Source: Escherichia phage LHE71. Taken from it: a stretch of 50,158 bases of DNA. Location: the sequence record OP455115; one strand, 5' to 3'. The translations under genes and the position numbers were made by a program. This document shows, piece after piece, positions 806-42,420 of this stretch (its first letter is position 1; every line of letters starts with the position of its first letter). The notes beneath the pieces were generated by a model. That model worked only from the letters and a program-made list of their open reading frames with translations. It did not search any database and was not told the DNA's origin.

Positions 806-1009
806 TCAATCATTAATTTCAAATTGGCCCTTAGTAATATCCTGCGGGTAATCAACCTCATGCAGGTTTCCATCATCGCCGTACGCATATACGAGTCTAT
901 TTGCTTTATTTACTTTTTCAACATCGTACAAGCACCCCGCTGAGAAAGCATCGCTATTGCGTGACGTGATGCATCGAACCTGATCGCCTTTCTTTGGTAA
1001 ATTAGCCAT
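806..1009 (-). CDS. Hypothetical protein, member of small paralogous domain family
   Basis: 67 aa; carries the VRCITS...LYDV...DDGN pattern shared with 4233..4871, 12582..12998 and 16401..16577. Confidence 0.5.
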   Translation of the reverse strand: MANLPKKGDQVRCITSRNSDAFSAGCLYDVEKVNKANRLVYAYGDDGNLHEVDYPQDITKGQFEIND

Positions 1010-1239
1010 TATTCGTAATCCCCTTCTTTGTTACCTACGCGCCCGGCAATATACCCGGCAGTCCAGACAAATTTGTAGCGATCGATGAGTAATTCGACCT
1101 TTTTGTGGTGAGCAGAAATAACGTCAATCATGATCTTGTCGTTTTTCCGATCTTCTTTTTTCATGCCACTGACGAATTTATTTAATTCCTTCGCCGCGCG
1201 CTTTACTACGTTCCATTCCGCTTCACTTAAACCGAACAT
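1009..1239 (-). CDS. Hypothetical protein
   Basis: 76-aa ORF, start overlaps upstream stop. Confidence 0.5.
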   Translation of the reverse strand: MFGLSEAEWNVVKRAAKELNKFVSGMKKEDRKNDKIMIDVISAHHKKVELLIDRYKFVWTAGYIAGRVGNKEGDYE

Positions 1240-1583
1240 TATTTACCTCTCCCAAATGAAAAATTAACACCTAAAACCTGATTGCAAACTGATTCCATGT
1301 ATCGCAACTGGTATTGAGCAACCTTTGAAGGACTTAATTCATCGGCAAATAAATCATCAACATTGATTTCTTTTTTATGCTTGCGCTTCCATGCCTTGAT
1401 AATGTTTGGCAAGATGCGCTCGCTTTTCCATGCTGCAAACTCAGCTTGATTAGTTGATGCAGGCGTAAGTTGCTTTTCAATCTGGTTTAGCAACTCATCG
1501 GTTGCTCCTTTTACGTGCAATTGATCGCTGATAGCATCAAGGATTTCACGAGCTTGCTTCTCTGACAGGTTAATAGTAATCAT
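1239..1583 (-). CDS. Hypothetical protein
   Basis: 114-aa ORF, overlapping start/stop with neighbours. Confidence 0.5.
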   Translation of the reverse strand: MITINLSEKQAREILDAISDQLHVKGATDELLNQIEKQLTPASTNQAEFAAWKSERILPNIIKAWKRKHKKEINVDDLFADELSPSKVAQYQLRYMESVCNQVLGVNFSFGRGK

Positions 1584-1789
1584 GCCTCTTCTCCTTCATC
1601 TTCGATCGGTGTAAAAAACAGAGTGTTCACTGCCGGGTTATAATAAACTCCGTCGTCATAGTCGCTTTCTTTCACTTTAATGAAAACGCCGCAACCGTCA
1701 TGCATGAAATCACCGTTATCAGTATGAACGAGTTCGAATACTTCAGAAGTTTTAGTGCAAGTGAAAAACTTATCAGTTGATACCATCAT
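1580..1789 (-). CDS. Hypothetical protein
   Basis: 69-aa ORF directly downstream of a promoter-like module. Confidence 0.5.
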   Translation of the reverse strand: MMVSTDKFFTCTKTSEVFELVHTDNGDFMHDGCGVFIKVKESDYDDGVYYNPAVNTLFFTPIEDEGEEA

Positions 1790-1849
1790 TTCTATTTTCT
1801 CTCTTCGTTGTCGATGAGGTAACTATATCAAATCACCCCACCGACGTTT

Positions 1850-1864
1850 TAGCAATTAGTGCTA
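1850..1864. promoter_or_regulatory. Palindromic intergenic motif instance (TAGCAATTAGTGCTA)
   Basis: 15-bp inverted repeat; on the minus strand followed after 22 nt by TATAGT and a conserved leader. Confidence 0.45.
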
Positions 1865-2434
1865 TTTATTGATGAACGTAGCGGCTATGTGCTGAGCGGT
1901 AATTTCTGGATGACCTTCTATAGCAAAGAAATCACACTCCTGATAACCATTAACCCCGATCATATCGTCCAGATAAATATAATCACGGCTGTCGTTGTCA
2001 AAGTTGCAGCCTTTGCGATGGATTCGGCATAGCTTGACCTGGATATCACCTTCAATCATCTGCAATACCTCATCCTTGAATCCTCCATCTGTAAATACCG
2101 ACAGAGAATCTGACTCTTTTACCTTGCATTCCGCTCGCATACCGAAAAATCGATTGCCAAATTGCGGCTTGATTACCTCCTCGCTAATCCAGATCATAAA
2201 TTGCCGTGGGCTTTTACCGTTCAGGATAGATGCTGGCTCTTCTTTATATCGACGGTCCTCATACAGGAACATGAAATACTCGAAATTAGCCTCACCCAAT
2301 ATTGCTCGTGCAATCTCAAACATTGGCGCTTTGAAGCTTCGTAGCGCTACGTGATCGTAAGTGTCAGCCAGGATGCATCCGATAGTGTCTTTTCCAGCGC
2401 CTGGTGCACCGTTTAAAATGATAGCTGTTTTCAT
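1862..2434 (-). CDS. P-loop kinase, deoxynucleoside monophosphate kinase-like
   Basis: Walker A GAPGAGKDT near N-terminus and LNGKSP motif; resembles phage dNMP kinases from memory. Confidence 0.55.
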   Translation of the reverse strand: MKTAIILNGAPGAGKDTIGCILADTYDHVALRSFKAPMFEIARAILGEANFEYFMFLYEDRRYKEEPASILNGKSPRQFMIWISEEVIKPQFGNRFFGMRAECKVKESDSLSVFTDGGFKDEVLQMIEGDIQVKLCRIHRKGCNFDNDSRDYIYLDDMIGVNGYQECDFFAIEGHPEITAQHIAATFINK

Positions 2435-2435
2435 G

Positions 2436-2546
2436 TTAGTATCTCCCTAAAAATAATTTTGCCACATTGATGATGGTGTGATTGATGATTAACAGTATAA
2501 TAACCGTTAATACCGGATGCGCTGCAATAAATTCGTACATGTTCAT
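2436..2546 (-). CDS. Small hydrophobic peptide (36 aa)
   Basis: ORF absent from the supplied track (below its size cutoff); ATGA overlap with the HAD gene stop; predicted single TM segment. Confidence 0.35.
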   Translation of the reverse strand: MNMYEFIAAHPVLTVIILLIINHTIINVAKLFLGRY

Positions 2547-3076
2547 TCATCTACTCCGTGAGATTTTAAATGATCGTGGACGTTATCGCCATAGTCAACT
2601 ACAGCATACGTAGTTATTCCAAGCGATCGGAATAATGGAATAATTTGCGGTGAGTCATCCCAAGCTGCCAGAATGTTATCAACGCCGATCGCGCGCACCG
2701 CCTCTTCTTTCATTACCGTGTCTTTGCGGTTGTCGGTATGCGGCCTCATGACTAAGTAATCATATCTTGCGCCGTGATGCTTAAGCCATAACTCAGATGC
2801 GTAACGCACCTCATCGCTTCTCCCGGTTAAAATGATCACATGATAACCAGCTGCAAACATAGAGTTCATCACTTCAATCGTACTCTGGATTGGGTTATCA
2901 AATATTGCCGCGCGGTTAAACTCAGACCAGCTTTCAGTCAAGTGCAAATCCTTTGTCGGTAGCAGGTGAAGTCGCTTTGAGCCATCACTCAGCGTTCCGT
3001 CAAAGTCAAAGATTGCTACGCGGCGCGTGCCGAGAAACAGGTTGATAGTCTGACCCCAAATGGTGACTTTATCCAT
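2543..3076 (-). CDS. HAD-superfamily phosphatase
   Basis: HAD motif I FDFDGTL (DxDxT) near N-terminus; 177 aa. Confidence 0.6.
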   Translation of the reverse strand: MDKVTIWGQTINLFLGTRRVAIFDFDGTLSDGSKRLHLLPTKDLHLTESWSEFNRAAIFDNPIQSTIEVMNSMFAAGYHVIILTGRSDEVRYASELWLKHHGARYDYLVMRPHTDNRKDTVMKEEAVRAIGVDNILAAWDDSPQIIPLFRSLGITTYAVVDYGDNVHDHLKSHGVDE

Positions 3077-3279
3077 TACGCTTTCTCCTGTACGCGAATG
3101 ATTTTGATGGTTAATTCTTCTTCAACAATTTTGTAGCCGGATGATTCAAATTTACTCTCACGAGTCTGATTGCATGAATCAATAACTACCTGGCTATTCT
3201 GAATATCGTCAGCCATGCCGATTAGCATGCTAACGATCTGCGTTCTCGTTTCGTTGCTCATTCCGGTAATAGTTTTCAT
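3076..3279 (-). CDS. Hypothetical protein
   Basis: 67-aa ORF downstream of a promoter-like module. Confidence 0.5.
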   Translation of the reverse strand: MKTITGMSNETRTQIVSMLIGMADDIQNSQVVIDSCNQTRESKFESSGYKIVEEELTIKIIRVQEKA

Positions 3280-3346
3280 ATTGATTCCTCTGATTGGTTG
3301 CTTAACTCAACGAAGGGCATTCTATCAAATGCCCTTGAGCAAGTTT

Positions 3347-3361
3347 TAGCAATTCGTGTTA
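3347..3361. promoter_or_regulatory. Palindromic intergenic motif instance (TAGCAATTCGTGTTA)
   Basis: Inverted repeat; 22 nt to TAGAAT with TGn extension on the minus strand. Confidence 0.45.
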
Positions 3362-3808
3362 TTACCAGTAATCGACCTCGTAGTCGGCCCAAGCGTCAAA
3401 ATCACTTTGGCAGAATGTGCCGCTATAATTTTCCATAATTTCATCGATCAGGAAGTAGCATGATTCGCCGTTACGATAGAAGTATGAATCTGCAACGTTG
3501 CGCGCCCAGCGCCCGGCGTCCTTCTTACTCATCTTCCAGCGCTTCATTGCGATTTTCTTGAATGCACGCACAACACGTTTGCGGATCTTGATATGCTTGT
3601 ACACCGCGTTGCAGCCGTAAGCCATATATTCATTATTACCAATATTCTGCATGATGTACGGATTAACGTCTTTTGACGTAATCATCAGATCGCCATCGCC
3701 GCGACGCGCATCATAAATGCTTGCTGTCATGTAGTGGCCTTTGAACATTCCAATGCCGTGCAGAGTGTATTCATTATTAGGTGTGTCAATGCAAATTAAG
3801 TGTTTCAT
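3362..3808 (-). CDS. Hypothetical protein
   Basis: Start moved to internal Met MKHLICID, which has SD GAGGAA; the longer ORF start lacks an SD. Confidence 0.5.
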   Translation of the reverse strand: MKHLICIDTPNNEYTLHGIGMFKGHYMTASIYDARRGDGDLMITSKDVNPYIMQNIGNNEYMAYGCNAVYKHIKIRKRVVRAFKKIAMKRWKMSKKDAGRWARNVADSYFYRNGESCYFLIDEIMENYSGTFCQSDFDAWADYEVDYW

Positions 3809-3865
3809 GAGTGATTCCTCGTTTGTTGGTGTAGGGGAATCATAGCGCATTCCCCTTGATAGGTT

Positions 3866-4084
3866 TTAGCAATTCGTGCTATTCGTTTTAATAGTGATGC
3901 AAAAATAATTTTTTAAGCACGTCACCACGCGCGCTGAATCGACTTGTGGAAGCCTTAAAATTTCATGGACCAGTTGCACTGGCGACACCTCAGATTTGTA
4001 GTAGTGTGCGATTCTGGAGGTGTTTGGGCGCATTCCTTCCACTGCGTCGCGTGCTGCATCTTCTGCTGTCATGATAGTAGCCAT
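3866..4084 (-). CDS. Hypothetical protein
   Basis: 72-aa ORF with AAGGGTG SD; its 3' end runs into the palindromic motif. Confidence 0.4.
   Translation of the reverse strand: MATIMTAEDAARDAVEGMRPNTSRIAHYYKSEVSPVQLVHEILRLPQVDSARVVTCLKNYFCITIKTNSTNC
3867..3881. promoter_or_regulatory. Palindromic intergenic motif instance (TAGCAATTCGTGCTA)
   Basis: Inverted repeat; 22 nt to TATGAT on the minus strand, with -10 inside a hairpin loop. Confidence 0.45.
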
Positions 4085-4179
4085 AAAACACCCTTAAGAG
4101 ATAATGTCAGGACCAGGAGGCAAAATAGCAACTCCTGAAATGATGGCGGCTCGTTATTCCAGTTAGTGAAGTCTGGCAT
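4072..4179 (-). CDS. Small hydrophobic peptide (35 aa), speculative
   Basis: ORF absent from the supplied track (below its size cutoff); SD GGAG 9 nt upstream of ATG; hydrophobic; overlaps next gene start. Confidence 0.25.
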
Positions 4180-4190
4180 AGTTCTTTCTC

Positions 4191-4225
4191 CAAAAGAAAG
4201 GGGAACCGTTCAGAGCCGATTCCCC
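4191..4225 (-). terminator. Candidate rho-independent terminator
   Basis: Stem GGGGAA/TTCCCC with 14-nt loop followed by a T-rich tract on the minus strand, after the 4233..4871 gene. Confidence 0.4.
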
Positions 4226-4232
4226 ATTAGCA

Positions 4233-4871
4233 TTACATGATGAAAAGCAGCGAAATAGCAGCGACCAGGAGAACAAGCGAGGCGGCAAGATTGAATAAAT
4301 CCACCTTCTCTTTAAACTTCAGCGCTGGCTTGTGGTCAACTTCCGACGGCTTGACGTTATGGATCTTGTTAGCTGCAATCTTGCCGTTAACGCAGAAAGT
4401 GCTCTTACGCTTCTTGCCGAACGTTGCGAACTTAGTGCCGCCGCTGTTCCAACGAAGACCTTCGCCGTTGTGGGTTACGGTAGCAATGCGGTGACGGCCC
4501 GTGTCGTCGGTCAGCGCTACAGTGTGCTTTGCGTGCTCAGTAGGCACGTCGTAGATTTTGCCAACGGTAAATTTTTTGGTGTTATCACTGATACATTCAA
4601 ATTTCATAAATTTTACCTCTTTATTATGCAGTTGGTTGATTGCTTCGATTACGTCGTTAAATTTAACACCATCCACGATTCGATGGAAGATATATTTTGA
4701 ACTACCGCCATAAGGCAGGAAAATTTCCTGATATTCGTGACGCCTGACAACGTTCACATTGCATCCGTTCTCATCAGTAATGATAAAACTATCATCATTT
4801 ACTCGCGCACCTTTGTAAGTTTTGCCCCACTTGAAACCAGATCCGCTACTCGATACACATTCAAATTTCAT
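4233..4871 (-). CDS. Membrane-anchored protein with two tandem copies of the small paralogous domain
   Basis: Internal repeat MKFEC(V/I)S...GK(T/I)Y twice; C-terminal hydrophobic anchor LAASLVLLVAAISLLFIM. Confidence 0.55.
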   Translation of the reverse strand: MKFECVSSSGSGFKWGKTYKGARVNDDSFIITDENGCNVNVVRRHEYQEIFLPYGGSSKYIFHRIVDGVKFNDVIEAINQLHNKEVKFMKFECISDNTKKFTVGKIYDVPTEHAKHTVALTDDTGRHRIATVTHNGEGLRWNSGGTKFATFGKKRKSTFCVNGKIAANKIHNVKPSEVDHKPALKFKEKVDLFNLAASLVLLVAAISLLFIM

Positions 4872-5155
4872 GGTTTAATGATCCTGTAAGGTTTGATTGA
4901 TAACATCACGTATTGCGTGAAGTCGCATTCTTGATCGTCATAGCCGCGATTGATGTATGGCGTCACGTCGGTAACATCGGACACCCTGGCATGTACTTCC
5001 CATCCGGTAAACTCACCGCGATCGAACTCGCATAGCTCAAGGATATCTCCAAGCTGGAATTTTCGGTCATTGATGCGGAACTCCGCTGTTTTGTTCCCGT
5101 TCATTACACCGATGAAATGTACCGGGGCGATTTTTAACTTATGAGTTTTGCTCAT
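4868..5155 (-). CDS. ASCH/DUF3850-like PUA-fold protein
   Basis: 95 aa; HKLKI...F...G.KT.E.R.NDR.FQ.GD.L pattern typical of DUF3850 from memory. Confidence 0.5.
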   Translation of the reverse strand: MSKTHKLKIAPVHFIGVMNGNKTAEFRINDRKFQLGDILELCEFDRGEFTGWEVHARVSDVTDVTPYINRGYDDQECDFTQYVMLSIKPYRIIKP

Positions 5156-5173
5156 CTTTCTTTACCTCGAATG

Positions 5174-5356
5174 TCACGTTCCAGAATTTATTGCCTCATG
5201 AATGATAGATACGTCCTGAGACGTGAGTTCGTGCAATGCGTGCCCGATAATCTCCATTCGGTCATTCGGCGCCATTCCACGAAGTGATTCACGTATGCGC
5301 GATGCCTTGTCGTAAATCTGCCATTGGGTGAGTCGTGTAGCCATAGCTGATTCCAT
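5174..5356 (-). CDS. Hypothetical protein
   Basis: 60-aa ORF with protein-like composition; preferred over the overlapping 5188..5382 frame. Confidence 0.4.
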   Translation of the reverse strand: MESAMATRLTQWQIYDKASRIRESLRGMAPNDRMEIIGHALHELTSQDVSIIHEAINSGT

Positions 5357-5378
5357 GATGAGTTAACTCGAATGTCTC

Positions 5379-5591
5379 TCATTGATTTTCTGCCTCTTCC
5401 GCCGCCAGGATAAGCGCCGCCGCTAATTTGCGAGCCGCGTCAGGTGAGTATTGCATCAGTGTTTGGCCATCTGCGTAACCCTCAGGATCGAAGTCCAGGT
5501 TGACAACATTACCACGAACGGTTCCCATCGTGACGCTGACCTCTGCTTGGTCAAAGTTAACATCGTCAATACGTACAGTTTCCATAATCAT
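5379..5591 (-). CDS. Hypothetical acidic protein
   Basis: 70-aa ORF downstream of a promoter-like module. Confidence 0.5.
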   Translation of the reverse strand: MIMETVRIDDVNFDQAEVSVTMGTVRGNVVNLDFDPEGYADGQTLMQYSPDAARKLAAALILAAEEAENQ

Positions 5592-5643
5592 TTCCTCTTC
5601 GTTGTTGATATGGCAATCATAGCTGACTACCCGATTTATTGTT

Positions 5644-5658
5644 TAGCAATTCGTGCTA
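5644..5658. promoter_or_regulatory. Palindromic intergenic motif instance (TAGCAATTCGTGCTA)
   Basis: Inverted repeat; 22 nt to TATGAT on the minus strand. Confidence 0.45.
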
Positions 5659-5722
5659 TTTAATAACTTCTTGATGCGATTGCGATAAAACTGCATTATG
5701 TGCTCATTGTGCCAATTGCTCA

Positions 5723-6220
5723 TTATTTCACCTCGTAGCGTACAAGCGTTCCGCGCTTAATGCTGATTTCACCTGATACCGTCTTGTTCTTAAATCCGCC
5801 GTAATGCAACAGGAGAATCACCACATCATCGTGTACCTCAATAGTTTTAGGAGTGGCGGTAATATCGATCCATGATTCGCTATCAAGTTGGACACCCTTT
5901 AGCGTCGCGCTCAATGGCATGTTCTCGATCTGAGTGCACTGTAGCGATGGCTTGATTTCTGGCTTTGCGCTATGAAAGATGGCTCGGCCAGCTTTCCAAC
6001 CAGCTTTCCAGCCAGGACCAACATACTCAACATAATATGGAAGAGATGGGATGTTATCAGGGTTGTGATTGTTATGAAGCTCAATGAGATTGCCAACGAT
6101 AGACGGATGGCACTCATTGAATGACGAATCTGTTGCACGGTCTTTGCTATGGCAGGTTATTTTCCCGCAGCTAATAGTGTTAAAAACCACAGGGAATTTA
6201 ATCTCGTTTAATTTCAACAT
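5723..6220 (-). CDS. Hypothetical Cys/His-rich protein
   Basis: 165-aa ORF next to the DpdA-like/YhhQ-like pair; N-terminal C-x4-CH...CH cluster; no family recognised. Confidence 0.5.
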   Translation of the reverse strand: MLKLNEIKFPVVFNTISCGKITCHSKDRATDSSFNECHPSIVGNLIELHNNHNPDNIPSLPYYVEYVGPGWKAGWKAGRAIFHSAKPEIKPSLQCTQIENMPLSATLKGVQLDSESWIDITATPKTIEVHDDVVILLLHYGGFKNKTVSGEISIKRGTLVRYEVK

Positions 6221-6287
6221 AATGATTTCCTCTTATTGGTTGCTCTGCTTCAATAAGGACACTATAACAAATGTCCTTGCGGAAGGT

Positions 6288-7115
6288 TTAGCAATTCGTG
6301 CTATTCCACTCGCTAATTTTCGGAGGCTTTACAGATTCAATGCAGTTCTTCAATATCGCACACCTTTCGGCAAGTATGTCTGATTTGCTGCCACCTTTGG
6401 AAAGGCATTGATCTACAGCTTGCTTAACGTCATCAGTATCAATCCACTTATCCTTGTGGATACTCCTCCTGCAAGCCTCAATTGTCACTACTTTATTTAT
6501 GGCAAGGTACTTAGGAACGTTGCAAGCCAGGTTAGTGCTATCTGCTGAGTTTAGAGGGTAGTTACCTAAAACTCTTCCATCAAGCATCCTTAATCCATGC
6601 AGCTTCACGTCAACCTGTGATTCTTTAACTGCTGAGAAAGCCTCGCTTATTCTTTGCTTCCACTTAGCGGATCTGACTGTTGCAAATTCACCAGAAGAAC
6701 CCATGCATACCCAATCCCATTTTTCACACAGACTTATCAGCCTACTGATTGGCTCATGCATATGCCACACCGGGGCGGCCTTGCTTTTAAGATCTGACGG
6801 CAGTTGAGATATGAGCTTATCATTATCCTCCGCGCTTCCTGTTATATCATCAGGGATAACAAAGAATCTCAATTTAGGATTATCAAACCAGTCAGGAAGA
6901 AAGTTGAAATAAAACTCCCTCCAGTCCTGAACCTTTCCGCTCTTCCACTTTGAGAATGCCCCATTATCTATGCATACCGTCTCAGCCACATCGAAGGCTA
7001 GCTTTATCTGGTCTGGTCGCTCAAAGGATACGAACGCACCACTTCCACGGTGCGCAATTCGTGCAATCCTTCCCTTATCTCCCCATATTGGAGATCCGTG
7101 AAAGTGAATTGTCAT
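6288..7115 (-). CDS. Alpha/beta enzyme, candidate tRNA-guanine-transglycosylase-like DNA-modification enzyme (DpdA-like)
   Basis: 275 aa with alternating strand/helix pattern; IDNGAF resembles the TGT DSGGFQ motif; ATGA-coupled to the upstream YhhQ-like gene. Function is inference. Confidence 0.4.
   Translation of the reverse strand: MTIHFHGSPIWGDKGRIARIAHRGSGAFVSFERPDQIKLAFDVAETVCIDNGAFSKWKSGKVQDWREFYFNFLPDWFDNPKLRFFVIPDDITGSAEDNDKLISQLPSDLKSKAAPVWHMHEPISRLISLCEKWDWVCMGSSGEFATVRSAKWKQRISEAFSAVKESQVDVKLHGLRMLDGRVLGNYPLNSADSTNLACNVPKYLAINKVVTIEACRRSIHKDKWIDTDDVKQAVDQCLSKGGSKSDILAERCAILKNCIESVKPPKISEWNSTNC
6289..6303. promoter_or_regulatory. Palindromic intergenic motif instance (TAGCAATTCGTGCTA)
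   Basis: Inverted repeat; 22 nt to TGtTATAGT (extended -10) inside a hairpin loop on the minus strand. Confidence 0.45.
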
Positions 7116-7591
7116 AGTTTAAATTTCCTCATGATAGCTATGATTATAAATGCGCCAACTGTCTTAGCTGCGAATTGTGCCAATGAAACATCAATCATTA
7201 CCGTTCCGAATGCTATCATCGGGAATGCTATTGAGTCAATCGCAGCCGACACTGTATTTGCGGGAATGGATTTACTGTAGAAATCACCACGCTTGAATTT
7301 GAACGTTATAGCGCTGCCTGTGCCAGCCAGCATTACCGATGACACTGAGGCGATCGCTATCATCCCTGCGTCTGGATCTATCAAAACGGTAGCAATACCT
7401 GCTGAAAGGCAAGCAATCATAGAATGCCAGAAACCAAATTTGTGCTGTATCTTATCCCTGATAACCATATCTGCCGATATGATTACGAGCGCATTAATCG
7501 GAGTGGCCCACACACCGAAATATGCAACCGACAGGTTTGCTGAAACATACAGCAAAACGAACAATGCAACCATTACTGATAACTTACGCAT
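7112..7591 (-). CDS. Multi-pass membrane protein, YhhQ/queuosine-precursor-transporter-like
   Basis: 159 aa, several TM helices; motifs SANL...W, SAD, NTVSAAIDSIAF..IAFG line up with recalled E. coli YhhQ motifs. Confidence 0.45.
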   Translation of the reverse strand: MRKLSVMVALFVLLYVSANLSVAYFGVWATPINALVIISADMVIRDKIQHKFGFWHSMIACLSAGIATVLIDPDAGMIAIASVSSVMLAGTGSAITFKFKRGDFYSKSIPANTVSAAIDSIAFPMIAFGTVMIDVSLAQFAAKTVGAFIIIAIMRKFKL

Positions 7592-7712
7592 ACTGGCTCT
7601 CCTGAGAAAATTGGTATAATTTGGATATTCGGTCTTACCTGCCTGATTCTGTTTACGGTTGATTCGTCACTTAGAGGATAAAAAACACCATTTACTAGCC
7701 ACCCTATCCTAG

Positions 7713-7883
7713 TCATTCGTCAGACTCTCCAATATATTTAGCCTCTTTCCATTGAGAGTATGCATCTTGCTCGCTGAACCCGTAGCCAGTAAAGCCACCA
7801 CCTTGACACATGAATCGCTTAAATTTCATGATTCCTTTGTAGCTGTAGCCACGGTCGGTGATTTTGCATTCTTCGTTAATCAT
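7713..7883 (-). CDS. Small hypothetical protein (56 aa)
   Basis: ORF absent from the supplied track (below its size cutoff); SD GAGGAAA upstream of ATG; directly downstream of a promoter-like module. Confidence 0.4.
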   Translation of the reverse strand: MINEECKITDRGYSYKGIMKFKRFMCQGGGFTGYGFSEQDAYSQWKEAKYIGESDE

Positions 7884-7942
7884 CTTCGTTTCCTCGCTCG
7901 TTGTCGATGGGATAACTATACCAGGTTATCCCGATCCAGTTT

Positions 7943-7957
7943 TAACAAAAAGTGCTA
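7943..7957. promoter_or_regulatory. Palindromic intergenic motif instance (TAACAAAAAGTGCTA)
   Basis: Inverted repeat; 22 nt to TGgTATAGT then leader TTATCCCATCGACAACGAG on the minus strand. Confidence 0.45.
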
Positions 7958-8278: not shown

Positions 8279-8290
8279 AATCACTCCTCC

Positions 8291-9216: not shown

Positions 9217-9285
9217 TGTCTACAATTGCGATTCAGGCAAATAGTATACAACTGTTAACACAAAATCAATTGTAATCGTAATCGA

Positions 9286-9300
9286 TAGCACGTTTTGCTA
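9286..9300. promoter_or_regulatory. Palindromic intergenic motif instance (TAGCACGTTTTGCTA)
   Basis: Inverted repeat in the control region; no obvious -10 at the usual 22-nt spacing. Confidence 0.35.
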
Positions 9301-9490
9301 AAAATGGAGGTGACTACCGGGCGAACCGGGTAACACTAATTCCTCCCTCTCACAATCATTGCATTCTAAGCAACAATCACATCAACAGTTGCACACCATG
9401 CAACAATCACATTTCATCATTCGCAATCAATCACAATCAAAATTATTCCAGATATTCCAGTATTGATGGAATAATGAGCAACTATTTGAA

Positions 9491-9505
9491 TAGCATTTTT
9501 TGCAA
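9491..9505. promoter_or_regulatory. Palindromic motif of rightward early promoter module
   Basis: TAGCATTTTTTGCAA, then 22 nt, then TATGAT (9528..9533), conserved leader, SD GAGGAAG, ATG at 9568. Confidence 0.5.
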
Positions 9506-9567
9506 AGCATCAGCCAGGTGAATCGGGTATGATTCATCTCATCAACCAATCAGTAGAGGAAGCAGCA

Positions 9568-9693
9568 ATGAGAGTTAAACAGATTTGTAGTCAGTGTGCT
9601 GGTCGTGGTTTTACTCTAGTCCCGTTATTCACTGGAGTCTGGACAATGCAGCGAATCACGTGTCCGGCCTGCAACGGTCAGGGTAAGCGATAA
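9568..9693 (+). CDS. Small zinc-ribbon protein (41 aa) with two CxxCxGxG motifs
   Basis: ORF absent from the supplied track (below its size cutoff); SD GAGGAAG 6 nt upstream; CSQCAGRG and CPACNGQG match the DnaJ-type zinc-finger repeat. Confidence 0.45.
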   Translation: MRVKQICSQCAGRGFTLVPLFTGVWTMQRITCPACNGQGKR

Positions 9694-9716
9694 GGTCAAT
9701 CAGGAGAATGCAACAA

Positions 9717-10423
9717 ATGAAATTAATCTGGTCACTATTTGACGGTTCAGGTCTTGCTGGTCATGAGCTGGCAAAGCAAGGTCACAAGGTGATGTGCTTC
9801 AACTTTGACGGAGCCGATCACGGTGATTACGCAAAGTACAATGCCAGAGTCGAGCATCCGAACATTGAGTATGTGAACGTCTTCATTGATGAGAAGTTCG
9901 AACGTGATGCTATCGCTGGCGTGTACGGAAAGCCGGATTTTATTATGGCCTTCCCGCCGTGCACTGACCTGGCTGTTAGTGCCGCCGCCGCCTCTTTGCC
10001 AGCAAGCGTGAACGTGATCCGTTATTCCAGGAGAAGGCTGTTGCCACCGCAAGGATTGCTGCGAACATTGGCGAGGCGCTTGGTGTTACTTACATCATTG
10101 AGAATCCGGTGAGCGTCCTGTCGTCTGCGTGGAGAAAACCAAATCACTCCTTCAATCCCTGGGAGTATGGCGGCTATCTTCCCGAGAATGACGTGCATCC
10201 CTGGTTCCCGATGTATATTGCGCCGCGAGATGCTTACCCGAAGAAGACTTGTCTGTGGACCTCTGACGATTTTGTCATGCCAAAAAGGAAACCTGTAAGA
10301 CTGCCTGACGGGTACTCTGCACAGCAAAACAAGCTGGGCGGCAAGTCTGCCAAAACGAAGCTGATACGATCCCTGTCGCCGCGTGGATTTTTCAAAGCGA
10401 TCGCAAATAGCACTTTTTGTTAA
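9717..10423 (+). CDS. DNA (cytosine-5)-methyltransferase-like gene interrupted by a -1 frameshift at a GCC repeat
   Basis: N-terminal frame has motif I-like LFDGSGLAG and motif IV-like FPPCTDLAVS; downstream frame has RDPLF and IIENPV (motif V/VI-like); frames switch within 9980..9992. Confidence 0.4.
10408..10422. promoter_or_regulatory. Palindromic motif of promoter module
   Basis: TAGCACTTTTTGTTA, then 22 nt, then CATAAT (10445..10450) and leader TACCTCATCGAAACGAG. Confidence 0.5.
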
Positions 10424-10482
10424 AACTCGAACGATATGATTTGGCATAATTACCTCATCGAAACGAGATTGAGGAAAACAAA

Positions 10483-10668
10483 ATGGCACGTCGCATCACT
10501 AAAGACCTTAAAGTTCTGAACAAAGAAAACGTAGTTAAAATTCTGGTTATTTGGGGTTACAACGAAGAGTCAGCAAAGCAGAAGGTCGAGGCTGGTTATG
10601 ACCTGGCTATCAAGGCAATGCCTAACGACGACGCTAAAGGTATTGCAAATTACGTATCTTTCTTCTAA
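10483..10668 (+). CDS. Hypothetical protein
   Basis: 61-aa ORF with SD GAGGAAAA. Confidence 0.5.
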   Translation: MARRITKDLKVLNKENVVKILVIWGYNEESAKQKVEAGYDLAIKAMPNDDAKGIANYVSFF

Positions 10669-10683
10669 TTAACAGGCCAGTAA

Positions 10684-10869
10684 ATGAAAACAAAATTAGT
10701 TCATAAATCAGAAATCAAGATCGGCGATACCGTGATTCACAACGGAGAGCTTAAAACTGTTGGCAAGGAGTCAATAACCAACGATGAATTTATGGGTTTG
10801 TTGTTGTTCGGGGACTCCTATCGACTTGGTTACAAAATGGTTGAGCTTGTTGAAGATGTAAAATTCTAA
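10684..10869 (+). CDS. Hypothetical protein
   Basis: 61-aa ORF; KOW-like GDTVIHNGELKTVG pattern. Confidence 0.5.
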   Translation: MKTKLVHKSEIKIGDTVIHNGELKTVGKESITNDEFMGLLLFGDSYRLGYKMVELVEDVKF

Positions 10870-10870
10870 A

Positions 10871-10885
10871 TAGCACTTTTTGCTA
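10871..10885. promoter_or_regulatory. Palindromic motif of promoter module
   Basis: TAGCACTTTTTGCTA, then 22 nt, then CATAGT inside a GGGAG/CTCCC hairpin, then conserved leader. Confidence 0.5.
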
Positions 10886-10944
10886 AACGAAAATGCGGGA
10901 GGGCTGCCATAGTTCTCCCATCAACAGAAAACGAGGCAATCACC

Positions 10945-11316
10945 ATGTTTAAACAATTCGTAGACCTGGACTTCTCAGCCAGCACAGCAATCCAGACTGA
11001 CGAGAAAGAGAACGTAGCGATCGATAACATTGCGCGCAAGATTTACAACAAGCAAGAGAGGGCAGTGAGAGTCGCTCTAAGCGCTTATTACGGTGTAAGT
11101 GATGCAATGGAGTGCGTGAACCGAGTAACCCGCGTGGTGGACCGTTTGGGCGTGTCTCGTTTCGTTGATAACGACACTGGCGAGACAATCATTCAGCTTA
11201 ATAATCCATCTATGCGTACCGAGCTTGGAAATATTGCATTATGGGGCGTGGCTAACTACTCAATCACTGTAAACTCCTGCATTGCGGATCGTGTTAAGGA
11301 GGCATTGTATGAGTGA
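10945..11316 (+). CDS. Hypothetical protein
   Basis: 123-aa ORF with SD. Confidence 0.5.
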   Translation: MFKQFVDLDFSASTAIQTDEKENVAIDNIARKIYNKQERAVRVALSAYYGVSDAMECVNRVTRVVDRLGVSRFVDNDTGETIIQLNNPSMRTELGNIALWGVANYSITVNSCIADRVKEALYE

Positions 11317-11509
11317 TAATATCTACCGCGTGGTTGCGATCTCACGCAAGACGCAGAAGAGCGTGATCGCTTACATGGGTAGTAGCGCCATTGAAGCTAC
11401 GGACGCCTTCGAATCATTGAAGAACAACGAGGGATTTATGAACACGTTCCTCGTTCGACTTGAGCGTCTCGAACCTGTTATCATTGATGAGGCGCGAAAG
11501 CTATCCTGA
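11309..11509 (+). CDS. Hypothetical protein
   Basis: Start at MSDNIYRV with SD AAGGAGG; overlaps upstream stop. Confidence 0.5.
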   Translation: MSDNIYRVVAISRKTQKSVIAYMGSSAIEATDAFESLKNNEGFMNTFLVRLERLEPVIIDEARKLS

Positions 11510-11525
11510 CTGGTTAGGGGGAATA

Positions 11526-11846
11526 ATGAACCATACTTACAAAATCACAACGAAGTCACCGAAGATTAACGGGAGCACGGTTGCAGCACTGAATAACGCG
11601 GCGGCAATTCACGAAAAAAATATCATGGAGCGCGTGAAGGCAGCGGTAGGTAGATTCTACGGGATCAACGCTGATATTGCCGACAGTAAACGACTATTCA
11701 AATACGTGCCAGGTCATCCATATAGCAGGATGATTGATATCAAGCATGAAAAAGAATTGGTTCGAATCGGATCGCTTAGCATTGACGAGTTCGACCATAG
11801 CATCAACCTGGTGACGGCGTATCAAACTTGGGACGGTAAAAAATGA
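11526..11846 (+). CDS. Hypothetical protein
   Basis: Start at MNHTYKIT with SD GGGGGAA. Confidence 0.5.
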   Translation: MNHTYKITTKSPKINGSTVAALNNAAAIHEKNIMERVKAAVGRFYGINADIADSKRLFKYVPGHPYSRMIDIKHEKELVRIGSLSIDEFDHSINLVTAYQTWDGKK

Positions 11847-11986
11847 TTTATATTCACACTTTCTATACTGGCAAATTTAACAGCGTAAAAAATGTTCGCG
11901 TTTACGATAGCCACCAAAAAGCAATGATGCAGAAAGTAGTTCTAGGTGGCACAATAAAAGAGTGCAAAGTAATTTCTGAGTACTAA
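11843..11986 (+). CDS. Small hypothetical protein (47 aa)
   Basis: ORF absent from the supplied track (below its size cutoff); ATGA overlap with upstream stop. Confidence 0.3.
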   Translation: MIYIHTFYTGKFNSVKNVRVYDSHQKAMMQKVVLGGTIKECKVISEY

Positions 11987-12001
11987 TAGCACGAATTGCT
12001 A
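11987..12001. promoter_or_regulatory. Palindromic motif of promoter module
   Basis: TAGCACGAATTGCTA, then 22 nt, then ATATAT-type -10 inside a GGGAGT/ACTCCC hairpin. Confidence 0.45.
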
Positions 12002-12063
12002 AAGACATACGATCGGGAGTGATATATATTACTCCCACACCAAAAGAAATAAAGGAATTAAAA

Positions 12064-12288
12064 ATGAGTATTAAAGTTGAGAATATCATCAAGCACCTGA
12101 ACGCGAGAGGCCGTGTAGTTATCAAAATGGATAAGTCTTCCGGTTTTATTTCAATGACGGTAACTAAGACTCGTAACGGTAATAACGTTATCGGCAGCAC
12201 GCCAGGCTCGCGCTTAGTAAATGCTACAGATGCGGATGTGCGCGCTACGCTTGAGGCTAACTCAATTTACATTAATTCATGGAGTTAA
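12064..12288 (+). CDS. Hypothetical protein
   Basis: Start at MSIKVEN with SD AAAGGAA. Confidence 0.5.
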   Translation: MSIKVENIIKHLNARGRVVIKMDKSSGFISMTVTKTRNGNNVIGSTPGSRLVNATDADVRATLEANSIYINSWS

Positions 12289-12501
12289 TTGATGGAGCGG
12301 GATAATTTCTGGACTCGTTATTTTGCCGCCCTTGATGCCGGGCTTAGTGCGGAATGGTGTATAAAGGTTGCATATAAAGAAATCACGCTTGATGACGCGC
12401 TAGGGAATATGGATATGGACGCAGAAAGCGAATATAATCCAGACTTCGAGTTACCTGGTGATGATATTGATGAGGACGACGACGATTATATTCCCTGGTA
12501 A
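12289..12501 (+). CDS. Hypothetical protein with acidic C-terminus
   Basis: 70 aa; C-terminal DDIDEDDDDYIPW. Confidence 0.5.
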   Translation: MMERDNFWTRYFAALDAGLSAEWCIKVAYKEITLDDALGNMDMDAESEYNPDFELPGDDIDEDDDDYIPW

Positions 12502-12503
12502 AT

Positions 12504-12518
12504 AGCACGATTTGTTAA
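12504..12518. promoter_or_regulatory. Palindromic motif of promoter module
   Basis: TAGCACGATTTGTTA, then 22 nt, then TGaTAAAGT inside an AAGGTCA/TGACCTT hairpin. Confidence 0.45.
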
Positions 12519-12581
12519 TATTGCCGTAAGGTCATTTGATAAAGTGACCTTATTCAAGATAACCAATCAGGAGCGAACGCA

Positions 12582-12998
12582 ATGAAATCCATCAAACTGA
12601 AATGCACTCACGCAGATAAAATTACAGGATTTGAAGTAAACAACCTATACAAAGGTCGTGAGCGCTATGATGGCACTCGCGAAGTAAAATTAAAATGTGG
12701 GAAGTATTTAAAACTTGAAAAGCATGATGAATTACAGATTCACGGATCTGATGAAATCTTATTCGCTAAGTTCACTGAGTTGAAAACAAAGACGCTCAAG
12801 TGCACCGGGCTTGACCATCGCAATCCTATGAAAAAATCATTCAAAGTTGGCAAGCGTTACCAGGTGGAAAGCGGTCGCGCTCTCGGCGGCGTAGCTGGTT
12901 ATATTTTTGATGAGGATGGTTGCCGTTGGACATTGTTTCGCGAGGAGATCGGTTTTAGCATAGCGGACGGTACAACCTTTGAGGCAAAATACTTATAA
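12582..12998 (+). CDS. Protein with two copies of the small paralogous domain
   Basis: 138 aa; repeated LKC...GK.Y..E.G pattern related to 4233..4871. Confidence 0.5.
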   Translation: MKSIKLKCTHADKITGFEVNNLYKGRERYDGTREVKLKCGKYLKLEKHDELQIHGSDEILFAKFTELKTKTLKCTGLDHRNPMKKSFKVGKRYQVESGRALGGVAGYIFDEDGCRWTLFREEIGFSIADGTTFEAKYL

Positions 12999-13003
12999 CC
13001 AAT

Positions 13004-13018
13004 AGCACTTTTTGCAAA
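13004..13018. promoter_or_regulatory. Palindromic motif of promoter module
   Basis: TAGCACTTTTTGCAA, then 22 nt, then TATCAT inside a CGGTGT/ACACCG hairpin. Confidence 0.45.
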
Positions 13019-13074
13019 ACGCGTGTACCATTGGCGGTGTATCATTTACACCGTCAACTAAGGAGTTTATTGTG

Positions 13075-14643
13075 ATGTTTAATATTAAGCCAAAACTGAA
13101 TTACCAACAGATTATTGAGATCGCCAATAGCACTGGAGTTAATCCGGTGGCGATCGCAATTCGTGAAAACAGCTATGGTGACTCAGTTTCATTTTGGCAA
13201 GATCCGATCGATATCAATAGCGGCAACGATAAGTTCCCTCTGATTTCGTTAGGTGGCAATAACTTGGTATTCGAATATGCAAAAGCAAAGGCCGAGTCTG
13301 TACAGTTCCCTGTTTCGTCTGCGTACGCTCATTTCATTGGGTGCATCTCAGCCGCGATGCTCGGGAAGTTTTGGGTGAAATATCACGGAGAAGAGCAACC
13401 GACCGCTCTTTACATGGTGATTAGCCAGCCACCTTCAACAGGTAAATCAGCGATCAACTCAGCGGCTATAACGCCTATGCGTGCAGAGATTCAGCGACTG
13501 AATGAAGAGCGCAAAAAGGAACGCACCCGATTAACCAGTCAGCTACGTCAGGTCGAGAAGGAAATTAAAAACGACCCGAAGGGTAACACGACGGCGGCGC
13601 TGTACGAGGACAAGGAAAAACTGGAAGAGAAGATTAAGAAGATGGCTGATATTGTTTTCGCGGTATCAGATCCAACACCTGAAGGTCTAGCTAAGGTGGC
13701 GGCAGTGCAAGGTCACTTTTCCGTAATATCTGACGAGGCAACGGCAATCAATACATTGCTCGGTCTTACGTATGGAGGTTCTGATAAGAAATCAAACAGC
13801 GAGCTTATCCTTAAGGCGTGGGATAAAAACCATATGGAGGTCGCGCGTTCAAATCAGGACAATAACTTATCTCTTTGCCCGGTCGGTTCGATCTGCGTCA
13901 TTGCGCAGGATGAAACAATCAAGGGTATCATGGACGCAGGCCAGCGCGGTATCGGTGTATCTGAGCGTTTCCTTTTGGTTCGCGAGGAGCCGCTTTTAGG
14001 TACTCGTATTCTTTGTGATGAAAATGGTGATGCACTGTATAAAGAAGTCGATCGCGGACTGGTTAGCAAATATTACAGACTCGTGCACAACATCATGAAG
14101 GAGGACAACGTTGTTCTCTCTGTGAGCCGTAATGCTATGCGTGAATTAAACCTTGCGCGCCAGGCGATGGAGCCTGATTTCGCCGCCGGGGGAAAATACT
14201 CTCACTCAATGCTTCGCGGTCATCTCGGCAAGTTCGATAAGCACGCCTTGCGTATTGCTTCAGTTCTCCACACGATCAAGAATTGGGAGGGTGAATCACC
14301 GAACCGTTCCAACCGTGAGATTGACCTTGAAACAATGCAGGAAGCAATCATGATCTTCAATGAGCTTTCCAGGACTTATCTGTCGTCTGCCAGCGCTGCC
14401 GGGTATGCTGGTGATGAGGCTGAATCTCGTAAGCTGATTGATGTTATCACTGATATCGCAAAGAAGAATAAAGGGCGCGCTCCTATTCATAGCATCGTTG
14501 CAAAGTGCCGGAACGTTACGCCGTTCAACGGTCAACAGAAAGTATCTGAGCGAATCGACAGCCTGCTGATTACGCTCGAAGAGATGAATTACACTTGCCG
14601 CATTGATGATATTGTTTTCATCAATCCTCGACTGATGGGTTAA
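13075..14643 (+). CDS. P-loop NTPase, putative replication/primase-associated protein (DUF3987-like)
   Basis: Start at MFNIKP with SD AAGGAG; Walker A PPSTGKS and Walker B-like VISDEA. Confidence 0.55.
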   Translation: MFNIKPKLNYQQIIEIANSTGVNPVAIAIRENSYGDSVSFWQDPIDINSGNDKFPLISLGGNNLVFEYAKAKAESVQFPVSSAYAHFIGCISAAMLGKFWVKYHGEEQPTALYMVISQPPSTGKSAINSAAITPMRAEIQRLNEERKKERTRLTSQLRQVEKEIKNDPKGNTTAALYEDKEKLEEKIKKMADIVFAVSDPTPEGLAKVAAVQGHFSVISDEATAINTLLGLTYGGSDKKSNSELILKAWDKNHMEVARSNQDNNLSLCPVGSICVIAQDETIKGIMDAGQRGIGVSERFLLVREEPLLGTRILCDENGDALYKEVDRGLVSKYYRLVHNIMKEDNVVLSVSRNAMRELNLARQAMEPDFAAGGKYSHSMLRGHLGKFDKHALRIASVLHTIKNWEGESPNRSNREIDLETMQEAIMIFNELSRTYLSSASAAGYAGDEAESRKLIDVITDIAKKNKGRAPIHSIVAKCRNVTPFNGQQKVSERIDSLLITLEEMNYTCRIDDIVFINPRLMG

Positions 14644-14647
14644 TGAT

Positions 14648-15055
14648 ATGCTTCTTCTTTTAGATCTATTCAGGTTCTGCGAAGGTTACGACAAATACAC
14701 TCGACAGCACATAGCGAAATTTATATACGCCCACAAGGAAAGTGAGCGATTTGCTAAGGCCGCCGGAATGACTCGACGTGAATTTACAAGTGCGTTATCT
14801 AAGGAGTTTTGCGCTCGTTGCGTTACTGAGGGTTACTTGGATCTCAAGGATGGATTTTACTGGTGCAAGGGAAAGATCAAACGCCCGGTAATGATGAAGC
14901 TGATGTGTATTGATGGCTACAACAATCGATATACGTGGGAAATGATGCACATTGGAGAAATGAGTGATGAGGATTTGTTTGGCGAACGTAGAAACATTGA
15001 TAGATCGGAACGTCGAATTGTGCGCAAGACTCCAGCTTACGAAAGAAGAATTTGA
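14648..15055 (+). CDS. Hypothetical protein
   Basis: 135-aa ORF, last gene of the plus block before the terminator. Confidence 0.5.
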   Translation: MLLLLDLFRFCEGYDKYTRQHIAKFIYAHKESERFAKAAGMTRREFTSALSKEFCARCVTEGYLDLKDGFYWCKGKIKRPVMMKLMCIDGYNNRYTWEMMHIGEMSDEDLFGERRNIDRSERRIVRKTPAYERRI

Positions 15056-15170
15056 GCAAGGGTTGTTGAGTCTGTTGCTCACTTCAATGAGGACCAACAA
15101 CGACAGTGAGCACAATCTTTGCGACCAGGAAGGTGAGTTGCTTCTCCATGTCAAAAGATACAAATAACAA

Positions 15171-15193
15171 AGGAGGCTAAGCCTCCTTTTTTT
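15171..15193. terminator. Bidirectional rho-independent terminator
   Basis: Stem AGGAGGC/GCCTCCT followed by TTTTTT; lies between convergent gene blocks. Confidence 0.6.
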
Positions 15194-15581
15194 CGTCCTT
15201 ACGAAGTGAAAAATAAACCAGCAATAGACCAATAAAAACGAGAATCCAGCCAACGATAGCGTCATACCAGTTTCCAGGCTTAGTCACAGTGATGCTTTCA
15301 GCGTTAACCGTGTTGGCCTTAATGGTTGACACCTCAATTGACTTCTTCACGGAAGAGTCAACCTTTCCTACATTGGACTTTTCAACTTTAACATCTCGCT
15401 TATCTTCGGATTTTGCGGTTACTCCTGCTAATTGCTTTGTGTTCTCCTCTCCAATCTGTGCTGTAACTTCAGGTTTAGATCCGATTAAACCGCTCAGGGC
15501 AGATGCCGTCGAGCAACCGGATAGAGAAATAACACCAACAGCCACTACAATAGCAACGCACGTTTTCTTCAGTCTCATCAT
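15177..15581 (-). CDS. Unimolecular spanin (T1 gp11-like)
   Basis: Lipoprotein signal with lipobox LSGC at N-terminus, C-terminal TM helix, directly downstream of endolysin. Confidence 0.6.
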
Positions 15582-16066
15582 AATTCCTTAACGCAATACG
15601 CGTATTCTTCAGCGCGTCTGTTCTTGAGTCCTCTAGACACTTCGCGCTTTTTGGTTTTTGGGTTGTAGTAGTATACCCATCGCCATAACTGATTGCACGC
15701 TTCCCTGTGCTTACCCTGATTTATTAGCTTAAGCATTGTAGAAGATCCGAACGCTCCAGTACCAACGTTGAAAGTGAAGCTATACAATGACGCGCGCATC
15801 GTTACCGGAATATCAACCTTAACCTTCTTGTCAACGTATCGCTGAGCGACGCCGATGTGTTTTATCAACAAAGCATCGCATTCTCGCTTAGTGTATTTCT
15901 TACCAGGTATGACGTCCGGCCCGGTTATTCCGCTGCATACGGTAGGGACTCCGGCGATATCGTAATAAACCTCGTATTCTATACCTTCGATTCGTTCCAG
16001 TAGGGTAGGTGTCAACGTCAAAGCTGCCCCGATTGATGCGCCTATAACGTTATTTTTTAAACTCAT
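15578..16066 (-). CDS. Endolysin, lysozyme (GH24-like)
   Basis: [23 protein letters not shown] matches the E...D...T catalytic region of lambda R / T4-type lysozymes. Confidence 0.75.
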
Positions 16067-16281
16067 TATCTCCCCCTGATCTTAAGCGCCTTATTTAGAT
16101 CGCCATCGTTTAACGCTTCCTGAATTGCCTTGCTATCACGATACTTCCAGTACGCTCCCCAAGCGCCAAAAAGCAGAAAGCAAATGAATGTAGCGCCAGC
16201 AATATAAAGTTGACCTGTCGCCGCCCCTACCAACGAAGCACCGCCCGTGCTTGACGTAGCTGCTGTTAAAAATTCTTTCAT
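16066..16281 (-). CDS. Holin candidate
   Basis: Small protein with hydrophobic TM segment upstream of endolysin; start uncertain (ATG 16281 or TTG 16308). Confidence 0.45.
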
Positions 16282-16400
16282 AATCTCACCATATATTTTT
16301 TTGAACAAGTGAGTCGATTTTAACCTTCAAATTTACTTGATACAACGCAAAAAGGCCAGCATGTAAATCATGCCAGCCTGTAAGGTTATGAATGATATTG

Positions 16401-16577
16401 TTAATCCAGCTCAATAAATTCCAGGTAATGACCGTTCAGAGGAGCTTGGATTACTGAGCCTTGCCCGTCGTAAATCTCAAGCAATCCCCCACCGAAATCA
16501 TAACCAACACTATAGATCTGATTTACGCGGAATGGAAGTGTTTTGGAGTCATTTCGGATGCACTTAACTAGTTTCAT
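16401..16577 (-). CDS. Small protein, single copy of the paralogous domain
   Basis: Start at MKLVKCIR with SD AAGAGG; pattern KC..F.V.QIYSVGYD shared with 806, 4233, 12582. Confidence 0.45.
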   Translation of the reverse strand: MKLVKCIRNDSKTLPFRVNQIYSVGYDFGGGLLEIYDGQGSVIQAPLNGHYLEFIELD

Positions 16578-42405: not shown

Positions 42406-42420
42406 TTTGATTTCTCCAAT

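Follow-up and report, generated by a model that had tools for sequence, protein, structure and literature searches.

The window analyzed here, the whole of a 50,158-nucleotide (nt) stretch of DNA from Escherichia phage LHE71 (sequence record OP455115), carries four genes that encode six copies of one small protein domain. Megablast of its first 17 kb identifies it as a T1-like coliphage of the Drexlerviridae, genus Tunavirus, with approximately 91% identity across 75%-78% of the query to vB_EcoS_SA32RD, IME18, and LeonhardEuler (Bas13). The genes are designated G1 (806-1009, minus strand, 67 amino acids, or aa), G2 (4233-4871, minus strand, 212 aa), G3 (12582-12998, plus strand, 138 aa), and G4 (16401-16577, minus strand, 58 aa). 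All four are open reading frames (ORFs) at the coordinates given in a preliminary description of this DNA and, as it had stated, they are found in each of the two divergent arms and next to the lysis genes. Their homologues in the records of the three related phages carry only the label “hypothetical protein.” In Bas13, they are genes 80, 70, 47, and 39.

G1 and G4 each consist of a single unit, and G2 and G3 each contain two (a and b). The parts of these genes and the adjacent hairpins are listed below, in some cases with E values from hidden Markov models (HMMs) that are explained in the following paragraphs, predicted local distance difference test (pLDDT) scores, and isoelectric points (pI).

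806..1009, minus strand: G1, single-unit protein of 67 aa, PHROG 4927; leave-one-out E = 8e-4; far-unit HMM E = 3.8e-8 at profile positions 9-61
4200..4225, minus strand: terminator-like hairpin right after G2, with a 9-bp stem, 6 GC pairs, and a T-run
4236..4298, minus strand: putative C-terminal tail anchor of G2, residues 192-212, LAASLVLLVAAISLLFIM at the protein end, with a predicted helix at 192-211
4299..4415, minus strand: linker of G2, residues 153-191, pLDDT <50, Lys/Arg-rich, pI 9.9
4407..4610, minus strand: unit b of G2, residues 88-155, six predicted strands at 88-150; far-unit HMM domain E = 5.5e-10
4611..4871, minus strand: unit a of G2, residues 1-87, predicted barrel strands within 2-66 and helix at 71-83, pLDDT ~90
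12582..12788, plus strand: unit a of G3, residues 1-69, predicted strands at 2-67; far-unit HMM E = 2.5e-8; hypervariable
12789..12995, plus strand: unit b of G3, residues 70-138, predicted strands at 71-133; far-unit HMM E = 3.7e-6; strongly conserved
16353..16379, minus strand: terminator-like hairpin between G4 and the holin gene, with an 11-bp stem, 6 GC pairs, and a T-run
16401..16577, minus strand: G4, single-unit protein of 58 aa, PF23896, with a ribosome-binding site before the ATG at 16577

The listed span of the G2 linker overlaps unit b by 9 nt (its last three residues) because the disorder call begins at residue 153.

The preliminary description had proposed that one small domain was repeatedly duplicated to yield six copies in four genes. 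This observation is confirmed, and the family proves to be both real and more extensive than was first seen. As judged from profile comparisons, the six units are shown to be one homologous domain of ~60 aa. No significant match emerged when the four proteins were compared pairwise by BLASTP, and therefore motifs and profiles were required for the test. The motif originally described is present, but it is looser than was written. The units carry [KRE]-C-[IVT], followed after 6-12 residues by F-x-[VWA]-[GN]-x-x-Y, and a D-[DEG]-x-G turn comes next in five of the six; unit a of G3 has K-C-G instead. A strict version of the pattern, [KRE]-C-[IVT]-x(5,10)-F-x-[VWA]-[GN]-x-x-Y, matches five times in the six-frame translation, always inside a unit, compared with 0.003 matches expected from residue shuffles, although this count is a weak test because the pattern was derived post hoc, and the profile tests weigh more. 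Unit b of G3, the sixth unit, has a 12-residue spacer and falls outside the strict pattern.

For the first of these profile tests, HMMs were built from local orthologues of the units of all genes except one and were searched against 835 six-frame ORF segments. The omitted gene ranked first of the 835 each time (E = 8e-4 for G1, 1.5e-10 for G2, 1.3e-4 for G3, and 4e-3 for G4), and the best unrelated ORF reached only E = 0.3 or worse. All of these alignments share the same register, over the N-terminal 35-45 residues of the unit. Comparisons between families with hhalign link G2a to G2b (P = 2.7e-7), G4 to G2b (5e-5), G2a to G3b (8e-4), G2b to G3b (1.3e-3), G4 to G3a (6e-3), and G1 to G2b (0.03). 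Furthermore, the PHROG families cross-match between the genes; for example, unit b of G2 matches the PHROG of G1 itself (4927) at E = 0.0038. Construction of an HMM from the copies had been suggested in the preliminary description as a check, and the outcome extends beyond the window to relatives in a large protein library.

These relatives came from an exhaustive search, in which a profile of the six units and some of their relatives (alignment A6) was compared with 1.84 billion representative proteins. At E = 1e-3 or better, 113 representatives were recovered, and many of them are arrays of two to five units, ~70-80 residues apart, with the signature Cys ... F/W-T-x-G-K-x-Y ... D-D-x-G. A total of 157 units from these proteins were then used to build a far-unit HMM, leaving out any unit with phmmer E <1e-4 to a window unit. 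This second model also agrees with duplication of a single domain, because it picks exactly the six window units (E = 4e-7 for G2a, 6e-10 for G2b, 2.5e-8 for G3a, 4e-6 for G3b, 4e-8 for G1, and 5e-7 for G4), followed by an ORF at E = 0.21. When a seventh unit was sought in the window with the HMMs, none was found, and the best other ORF reached E = 0.2 or worse.

Some of the proteins recovered by the exhaustive search are metagenomic proteins of 240-450 aa that are made of three to five tandem units (P0194, P0198, P0206, P0207, P0232, and P0267), and P0267 has a hydrophobic segment at its N-terminus as well. A cluster look-up of the tandem-array proteins returned only unnamed metagenomic entries. 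Long proteins (1,000-3,300 aa) with up to 27 short matches at profile positions ~31-47 were left out, because they probably match the D-x-x-G turn through repeat motifs. When G2 and G4 were used in word-indexed homologue searches, only close T1-like relatives were retrieved, as was also the case in scans of viral contigs, and an NCBIfam scan returned nothing.

The preliminary description could not assign the domain to a named family, and this can now be corrected. G4 is a full-length member of the Pfam family DUF7244 (PF23896; E = 4.4e-27, 94.4 bits against a gathering cut-off of 27), and its homologues all carry PF23896. The scores of G2 (15.2 bits) and G3 (15.7 bits) fall below that cut-off (each E ~0.02), and a Pfam scan with G1 gave no match to DUF7244. 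The consensus of the 157 distant units passes at 34.8 bits. Judged by sequence, G4 would thus be a DUF7244 member and the remaining units would be divergent relatives beyond the curated boundary.

Among 94 exhaustive-search proteins that were scanned, DUF7244 was matched in 44 and a second family, DUF6501 (PF20111), in 23, and units of both families occur together in single tandem-repeat proteins such as P0194. DUF6501 resembles the window family in that it is retrieved by the unit profile and co-occurs with DUF7244 units, and the family consensus matches it weakly (E = 0.02). It differs in that the four window proteins gave no match to it at E up to 10 in the Pfam scan. DUF7244/DUF6501 is a catalogued superfamily, and the six window units belong to it. 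What is new here is that three unannotated families, including a tail-anchored two-domain form, are assigned to the DUF7244 superfamily and its fold. This connects PHROGs 4927, 10580, and 2684, three “hypothetical protein” families, with DUF7244 and with the fold of Gp54, a protein of phage Bas11 that is described below.

DUF7244 has been placed in the SH3 clan by one paper. A recent study (Eremina et al., IJMS 2026, PMC13164509) describes DUF7244 as a “standalone SH3” that adjoins the lysis cassette in 188 of 522 Drexlerviridae, located between an exonuclease-like gene and the holin of that cassette, and proposes that the DUF7244 gene of T1-like phages assists the endolysin. Its passages on DUF7244 treat the single lysis-adjacent gene only, and a term search of the paper finds no mention of Gp54. 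G4 occupies the published position, between the ORF at 16643-17794 and the holin gene at 16066-16308; its ATG at 16577 is preceded at 8-9 nt by an AAGAGG ribosome-binding site. In contrast, G1-G3 lie elsewhere, in the divergent arms, score below the cut-off, and are annotated as hypothetical; two are two-domain proteins, and one is membrane-anchored.

Structure prediction of the repeat units, a further check that the preliminary description had suggested, was performed for G2 and G3 with AlphaFold2, using no templates and 23 and 101 sequences, respectively. The G2 model (mean pLDDT 74, ~90 in unit a) has six-stranded barrels at residues 2-66 and 88-150, a helix between them at 71-83, then disorder at 153-191, and a helix at the C-terminus (192-211). 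The G3 model (pLDDT 90.6, predicted template modeling score 0.83) likewise contains two six-stranded barrels. HMM domain calls and models therefore both bear out the earlier view that G2 comprises two copies plus a C-terminal membrane anchor and that G3 comprises two copies. The only strong structural match to either model is Gp54 of Bas11 (PDB 9AXB). As in the Gp54 family, the predicted fold is a small beta-barrel of six strands that has a prominent beta1-beta2 loop.

In all copies, strand 1 carries a Cys (or Val), an aromatic-x-x-Gly/Asn-x-x-Tyr stretch covers the last part of the long beta1-beta2 loop and the first part of strand 2, and an Asp-x-x-Gly turn is present; the remaining positions have diverged. 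These shared residues look structural, of the kind that builds a small barrel. On the basis of the models, the unit is a phage-specific SH3-like beta-barrel of about 60 residues and six strands, with the same predicted fold as Gp54. As far as is known, the AlphaFold2 weights predate the 2024 Gp54 structure. The models are template-free and the weights are older than that structure, and therefore the agreement with the Gp54 fold should be independent.

Gp54 is a nonessential protein of 66 aa. Its crystal structure shows a barrel with six strands and a rare topology, to which SH3 domains come closest among known folds (PMC11578894). It binds a host immunity protein directly, thereby activating CapRel(SJ46) (Zhang et al., Nature 2024, PMC11578894). 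In light of this match and the SH3-like fold, the “binding-type” label that the preliminary description gave the domain seems reasonable. The activity itself is not transferable to G1-G4, because it is lost even in close relatives: Gp54 homologues that differ by three residues fail to activate CapRel(SJ46), and one or two substitutions abolish activation (PMC11578894). Moreover, Pfam keeps a separate family for Gp54 (PF25180, “Phage antiviral trigger protein Gp54”), in which it scores 116 bits and to which G1-G4 have no match at E up to 10. A tblastn comparison of Gp54 with the window yielded only E >1, and hence no Gp54 orthologue was found there. Searches of the PDB by sequence, made with the individual proteins and with the profile of the six units, yielded chance matches only (Tectonin and a nanobody) and did not retrieve Gp54.

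The fold differs from canonical SH3 domains, which have a 3-10 helix where this fold has its sixth strand. Canonical SH3, SH3b, Tudor, and KOW barrels differ further in that the units described here match no SH3 or SH3b Pfam family, stand alone or in tandem, and are predicted to be cytoplasmic. In BFVD, Foldseek recovers this fold from many phage proteins that are small or tandem, some of them from phages of Gram-positive hosts. A 70-aa protein of phage Sfin-2 that carries the same motif is among these matches. Sfin-2 gene 51 was considered as a free-standing equivalent of G2 unit a and was rejected in that role, as its sequence support is weak (BLASTP E = 0.004, with the match to unit b); it is a member by fold and motif only. 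Besides Gp54, at least six genes of Bas11 (MZ501085.1) are matched by the DUF7244-type barrel HMM, namely genes 41, 48, 61, 71, 78, and 79 (33759-33929, 37578-37943, 42369-42554, 45147-45338, 47025-47219, and 47216-47653). Thus, two barrel families coexist in one genome.

G2 ends in an 18-residue hydrophobic stretch, the only hydrophobic segment among the four proteins. A hydrophobic C-terminus is kept in all G2 homologues and the linker varies among them. Unit b is the most conserved part of the protein (column entropy 0.28 bits vs. 0.54 for unit a), and the homologue in phage T1, at 124 aa, consists of unit b and the anchor only. When an N-terminal hydrophobic segment was sought in the four protein sequences, none was present: the N-termini (MANLPKKGDQ, MKFECVSSSG, MKSIKLKCTH, and MKLVKCIRND) include no hydrophobic leader and no lysin fusion. 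Because a Lys/Arg-rich linker precedes the terminal hydrophobic helix and there is no signal peptide, the positive-inside rule indicates that G2 should be tail-anchored with both barrels toward the cytoplasm. G2 and a DUF3850 (ASCH-like) gene overlap at the stop codon of the latter, and in SA32RD a rho-independent terminator is annotated ~95 nt past the stop codon of the G2 homologue.

In G3, mean column entropy across 101 homologues is 1.80 bits for unit a compared with 0.57 for unit b. The N-terminal unit is therefore the more variable one in both two-unit proteins. In both the window and Bas13, G3 stands directly upstream of a gene for a DUF3987 helicase-like protein, and one small gene intervenes in Bas11. 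Homologues of G3 occur in 823 phage records, where the matches are mostly to the unit b half, and a rho-independent terminator is annotated downstream of the homologue in SA32RD. For the neighboring DUF3987 ORF (region 12999-13075, plus strand), the listed start is a TTG at 13012. Downstream of a small hairpin, though, the GTG/ATG at 13072/13075 follows an AAGGAG ribosome-binding site, and translation probably begins about 20 codons beyond the start in the mechanical ORF call.

Other members of the family behave as accessory modules. G1 homologues appear in 97 phage records, G2 homologues in 67 (all from Escherichia or Shigella phages), and DUF7244 in 188 of 522 Drexlerviridae; T1 lacks unit a of G2, and further members of the family occupy different loci in Bas11 and Sfin-2. 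Given the SH3-like fold, the precedent of Gp54, this patchy and modular distribution, and the predicted cytoplasmic location, we tentatively infer that these proteins form a family of compact protein-binding modules for interaction with the host, its defenses, or phage partners, a reading that is the best supported of those considered and that we hold to be plausible but short of probable. Each copy would serve as a compact protein-protein interaction module. Such modules would be made in the cytoplasm and would bind differing host proteins, probably including defense proteins, or proteins of the phage. G2 would hold two modules at the cytoplasmic face of the inner membrane by way of its flexible basic linker and C-terminal tail anchor, and G3 would pair a conserved C-terminal barrel with a fast-diverging N-terminal barrel.

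Several considerations weigh against this proposal. Neither a binding partner nor a phenotype is on record for any of G1-G4, and a search of the literature on small proteins of Bas13 or T1 found nothing relevant. The link to Gp54 is at the level of the fold only and may reflect either very remote homology or convergence, since the superfamily HMM scores Gp54 at -1.6 bits and hhalign gives a probability of 0.1%. Gp54 itself has no assigned beneficial function. The SH3-like fold of G4 is taken from the report by Eremina et al. (PMC13164509), and the membership of G1 comes from sequence profiles. G3, with its 823 records and, in each of three genomes that were examined, its place by a helicase-like gene, resembles a core replication accessory more than a counter-defense gene. 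Finally, the far-unit HMM is partly circular, as its members were retrieved using a profile that contained the six units. Nonetheless, the far units are natural sequences, every one of which passed on an E-value computed for the whole library, and the leave-one-out test does not share this circularity.

If the units do act by binding proteins, a broader possibility follows, which we regard as speculative and rather doubtful: T1-like phages may maintain a diversifying repertoire of a minimal six-stranded barrel as a general-purpose binder toolkit, whose members inhibit or sequester host defense or housekeeping proteins. The repertoire would comprise soluble single units, rigid pairs of a conserved and a hypervariable unit, and membrane-tethered pairs. 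Were this so, Gp54 would be the first member to be caught, since the host sensor CapRel would have evolved to recognize the scaffold, and the four proteins would be candidate anti-defense factors as well as candidate triggers of other sensor-type defenses. Copies of one tiny domain account for ~5% of the genes in a classic type of coliphage, and only one structural relative has been studied experimentally, a protein that directly triggers an immune sensor in bacteria. The family thereby offers a small and concrete set of candidates for anti-defense or defense-trigger screens in T1-like and BASEL phages. For now, its value lies in annotation and the generation of hypotheses and not in a newly demonstrated mechanism.

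A different function for the same barrels would be to bind DNA or RNA in the manner of Tudor, KOW, or Sm-type domains, with G3 acting alongside its helicase-like neighbor and G2 alongside the DUF3850 protein. The position of G3 immediately upstream of the DUF3987 gene, its many homologues, and the overlap of G2 with the DUF3850 stop codon are consistent with such a role, as is the basic character of G2b, G3a, and G3b (pI 9.0-9.7). However, G1, G4, and Gp54 are acidic (pI ~5), no nucleic-acid-binding family was matched by sequence in the Pfam scan, and structural matches to helicase SH3 domains are no better than those to generic SH3 domains. In addition, the only protein of this fold that has been studied experimentally binds a protein. 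We therefore consider nucleic acid binding to be unlikely.

For G4 alone, a role as a lysis accessory has to be weighed, in which an SH3b-like module would bind the cell wall and aid the endolysin. G4 lies directly upstream of the holin, endolysin, and spanin genes. In the study by Eremina et al. (PMC13164509), the 188 Drexlerviridae with DUF7244 carry it exclusively near the lysis module, and this role is suggested for it. SH3b domains of endolysins reach peptidoglycan through a signal peptide or a signal-anchor-release (SAR) segment, or by fusion to a lysin, whereas G1-G4 have none of these, and G4 should stay in the cytoplasm. Pinholin lesions are too small for the release of folded proteins. 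Eremina et al. describe T1 as using a pinholin together with a SAR endolysin (PMC13164509). The terminator-like hairpin separates G4 from the holin gene, and in SA32RD the DUF7244 gene, its G4 homologue, is flanked on both sides by annotated rho-independent terminators. G4 is acidic (pI 5.1), and none of the four proteins matches an SH3-type Pfam family, including those of SH3b type, at E up to 10. The other five copies reside in the divergent early arms. With paralogues so far from the lysis genes and all copies appearing cytoplasmic, caution is warranted toward a cell-wall-binding function for the lysis-adjacent copy, which we judge to be quite improbable.

The preliminary description raised yet another function for G2, that of a membrane-anchored exclusion protein that blocks the entry of a second phage. 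The anchor is conserved, and the gene is restricted to one genus and lies in a divergent arm that the description took as early, both of which are typical of exclusion genes. The known exclusion proteins Cor and Llp are lipoproteins that block FhuA and act in the periplasm, and they have a signal peptide with a lipobox. G2 has neither feature, and its tail anchor and Lys/Arg-rich linker predict that the barrels face the cytoplasm; Cor is also described in PMC13164509. Soluble paralogues, moreover, cannot act in this way. The case for exclusion is therefore weakened, and we regard it as very unlikely.

Lastly, the notion that there is no real family, such that the similarity would reflect composition or a chance short motif, might draw on the blank BLASTP comparisons, the post hoc motif, and the weak pairwise profile links of G1 and G3a, but it is scarcely credible given that both kinds of HMM single out exactly these units among 835 ORFs, that the independent models of G2 and G3 both lead to one rare fold in the PDB, and that the family consensus passes the DUF7244 cut-off.

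Several other features of the window were encountered along with the family of protein-binding candidates. A perfect hairpin with a 9-bp stem and T-runs on both sides (15169-15189, both strands) is likely to be a bidirectional terminator. It is located at the convergence of the rightward arm, which ends at 15055, and the lysis operon, whose spanin gene ends at 15177, and SA32RD is annotated likewise. Three ORFs (165 aa, 275 aa, and a 159-aa product that looks multi-pass and hydrophobic) fill positions 5723-7591 on the minus strand and have no Pfam match. This block is probably a strain-specific insertion, as the corresponding stretch of Bas13, compared by annotation, is annotated with ORFs of different sizes.

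A Dcm-like C5-cytosine methyltransferase gene (9708-10423, plus strand) is split by a frameshift near 9989-9995, such that the Bas13 enzyme aligns in frame 3 over its residues 1-91 and in frame 2 over residues 93-234. The frameshift means that this is a pseudogene, or else it is an error of sequencing. The rightward arm begins with an ORF (9529-9693, plus strand) that encodes 54 aa with a match to the DnaJ-type CxxCxGxG zinc finger (E = 3e-6, below the Pfam cut-off). Where the window has this zinc-finger ORF, Sfin-2 has its 70-aa member of the barrel family.

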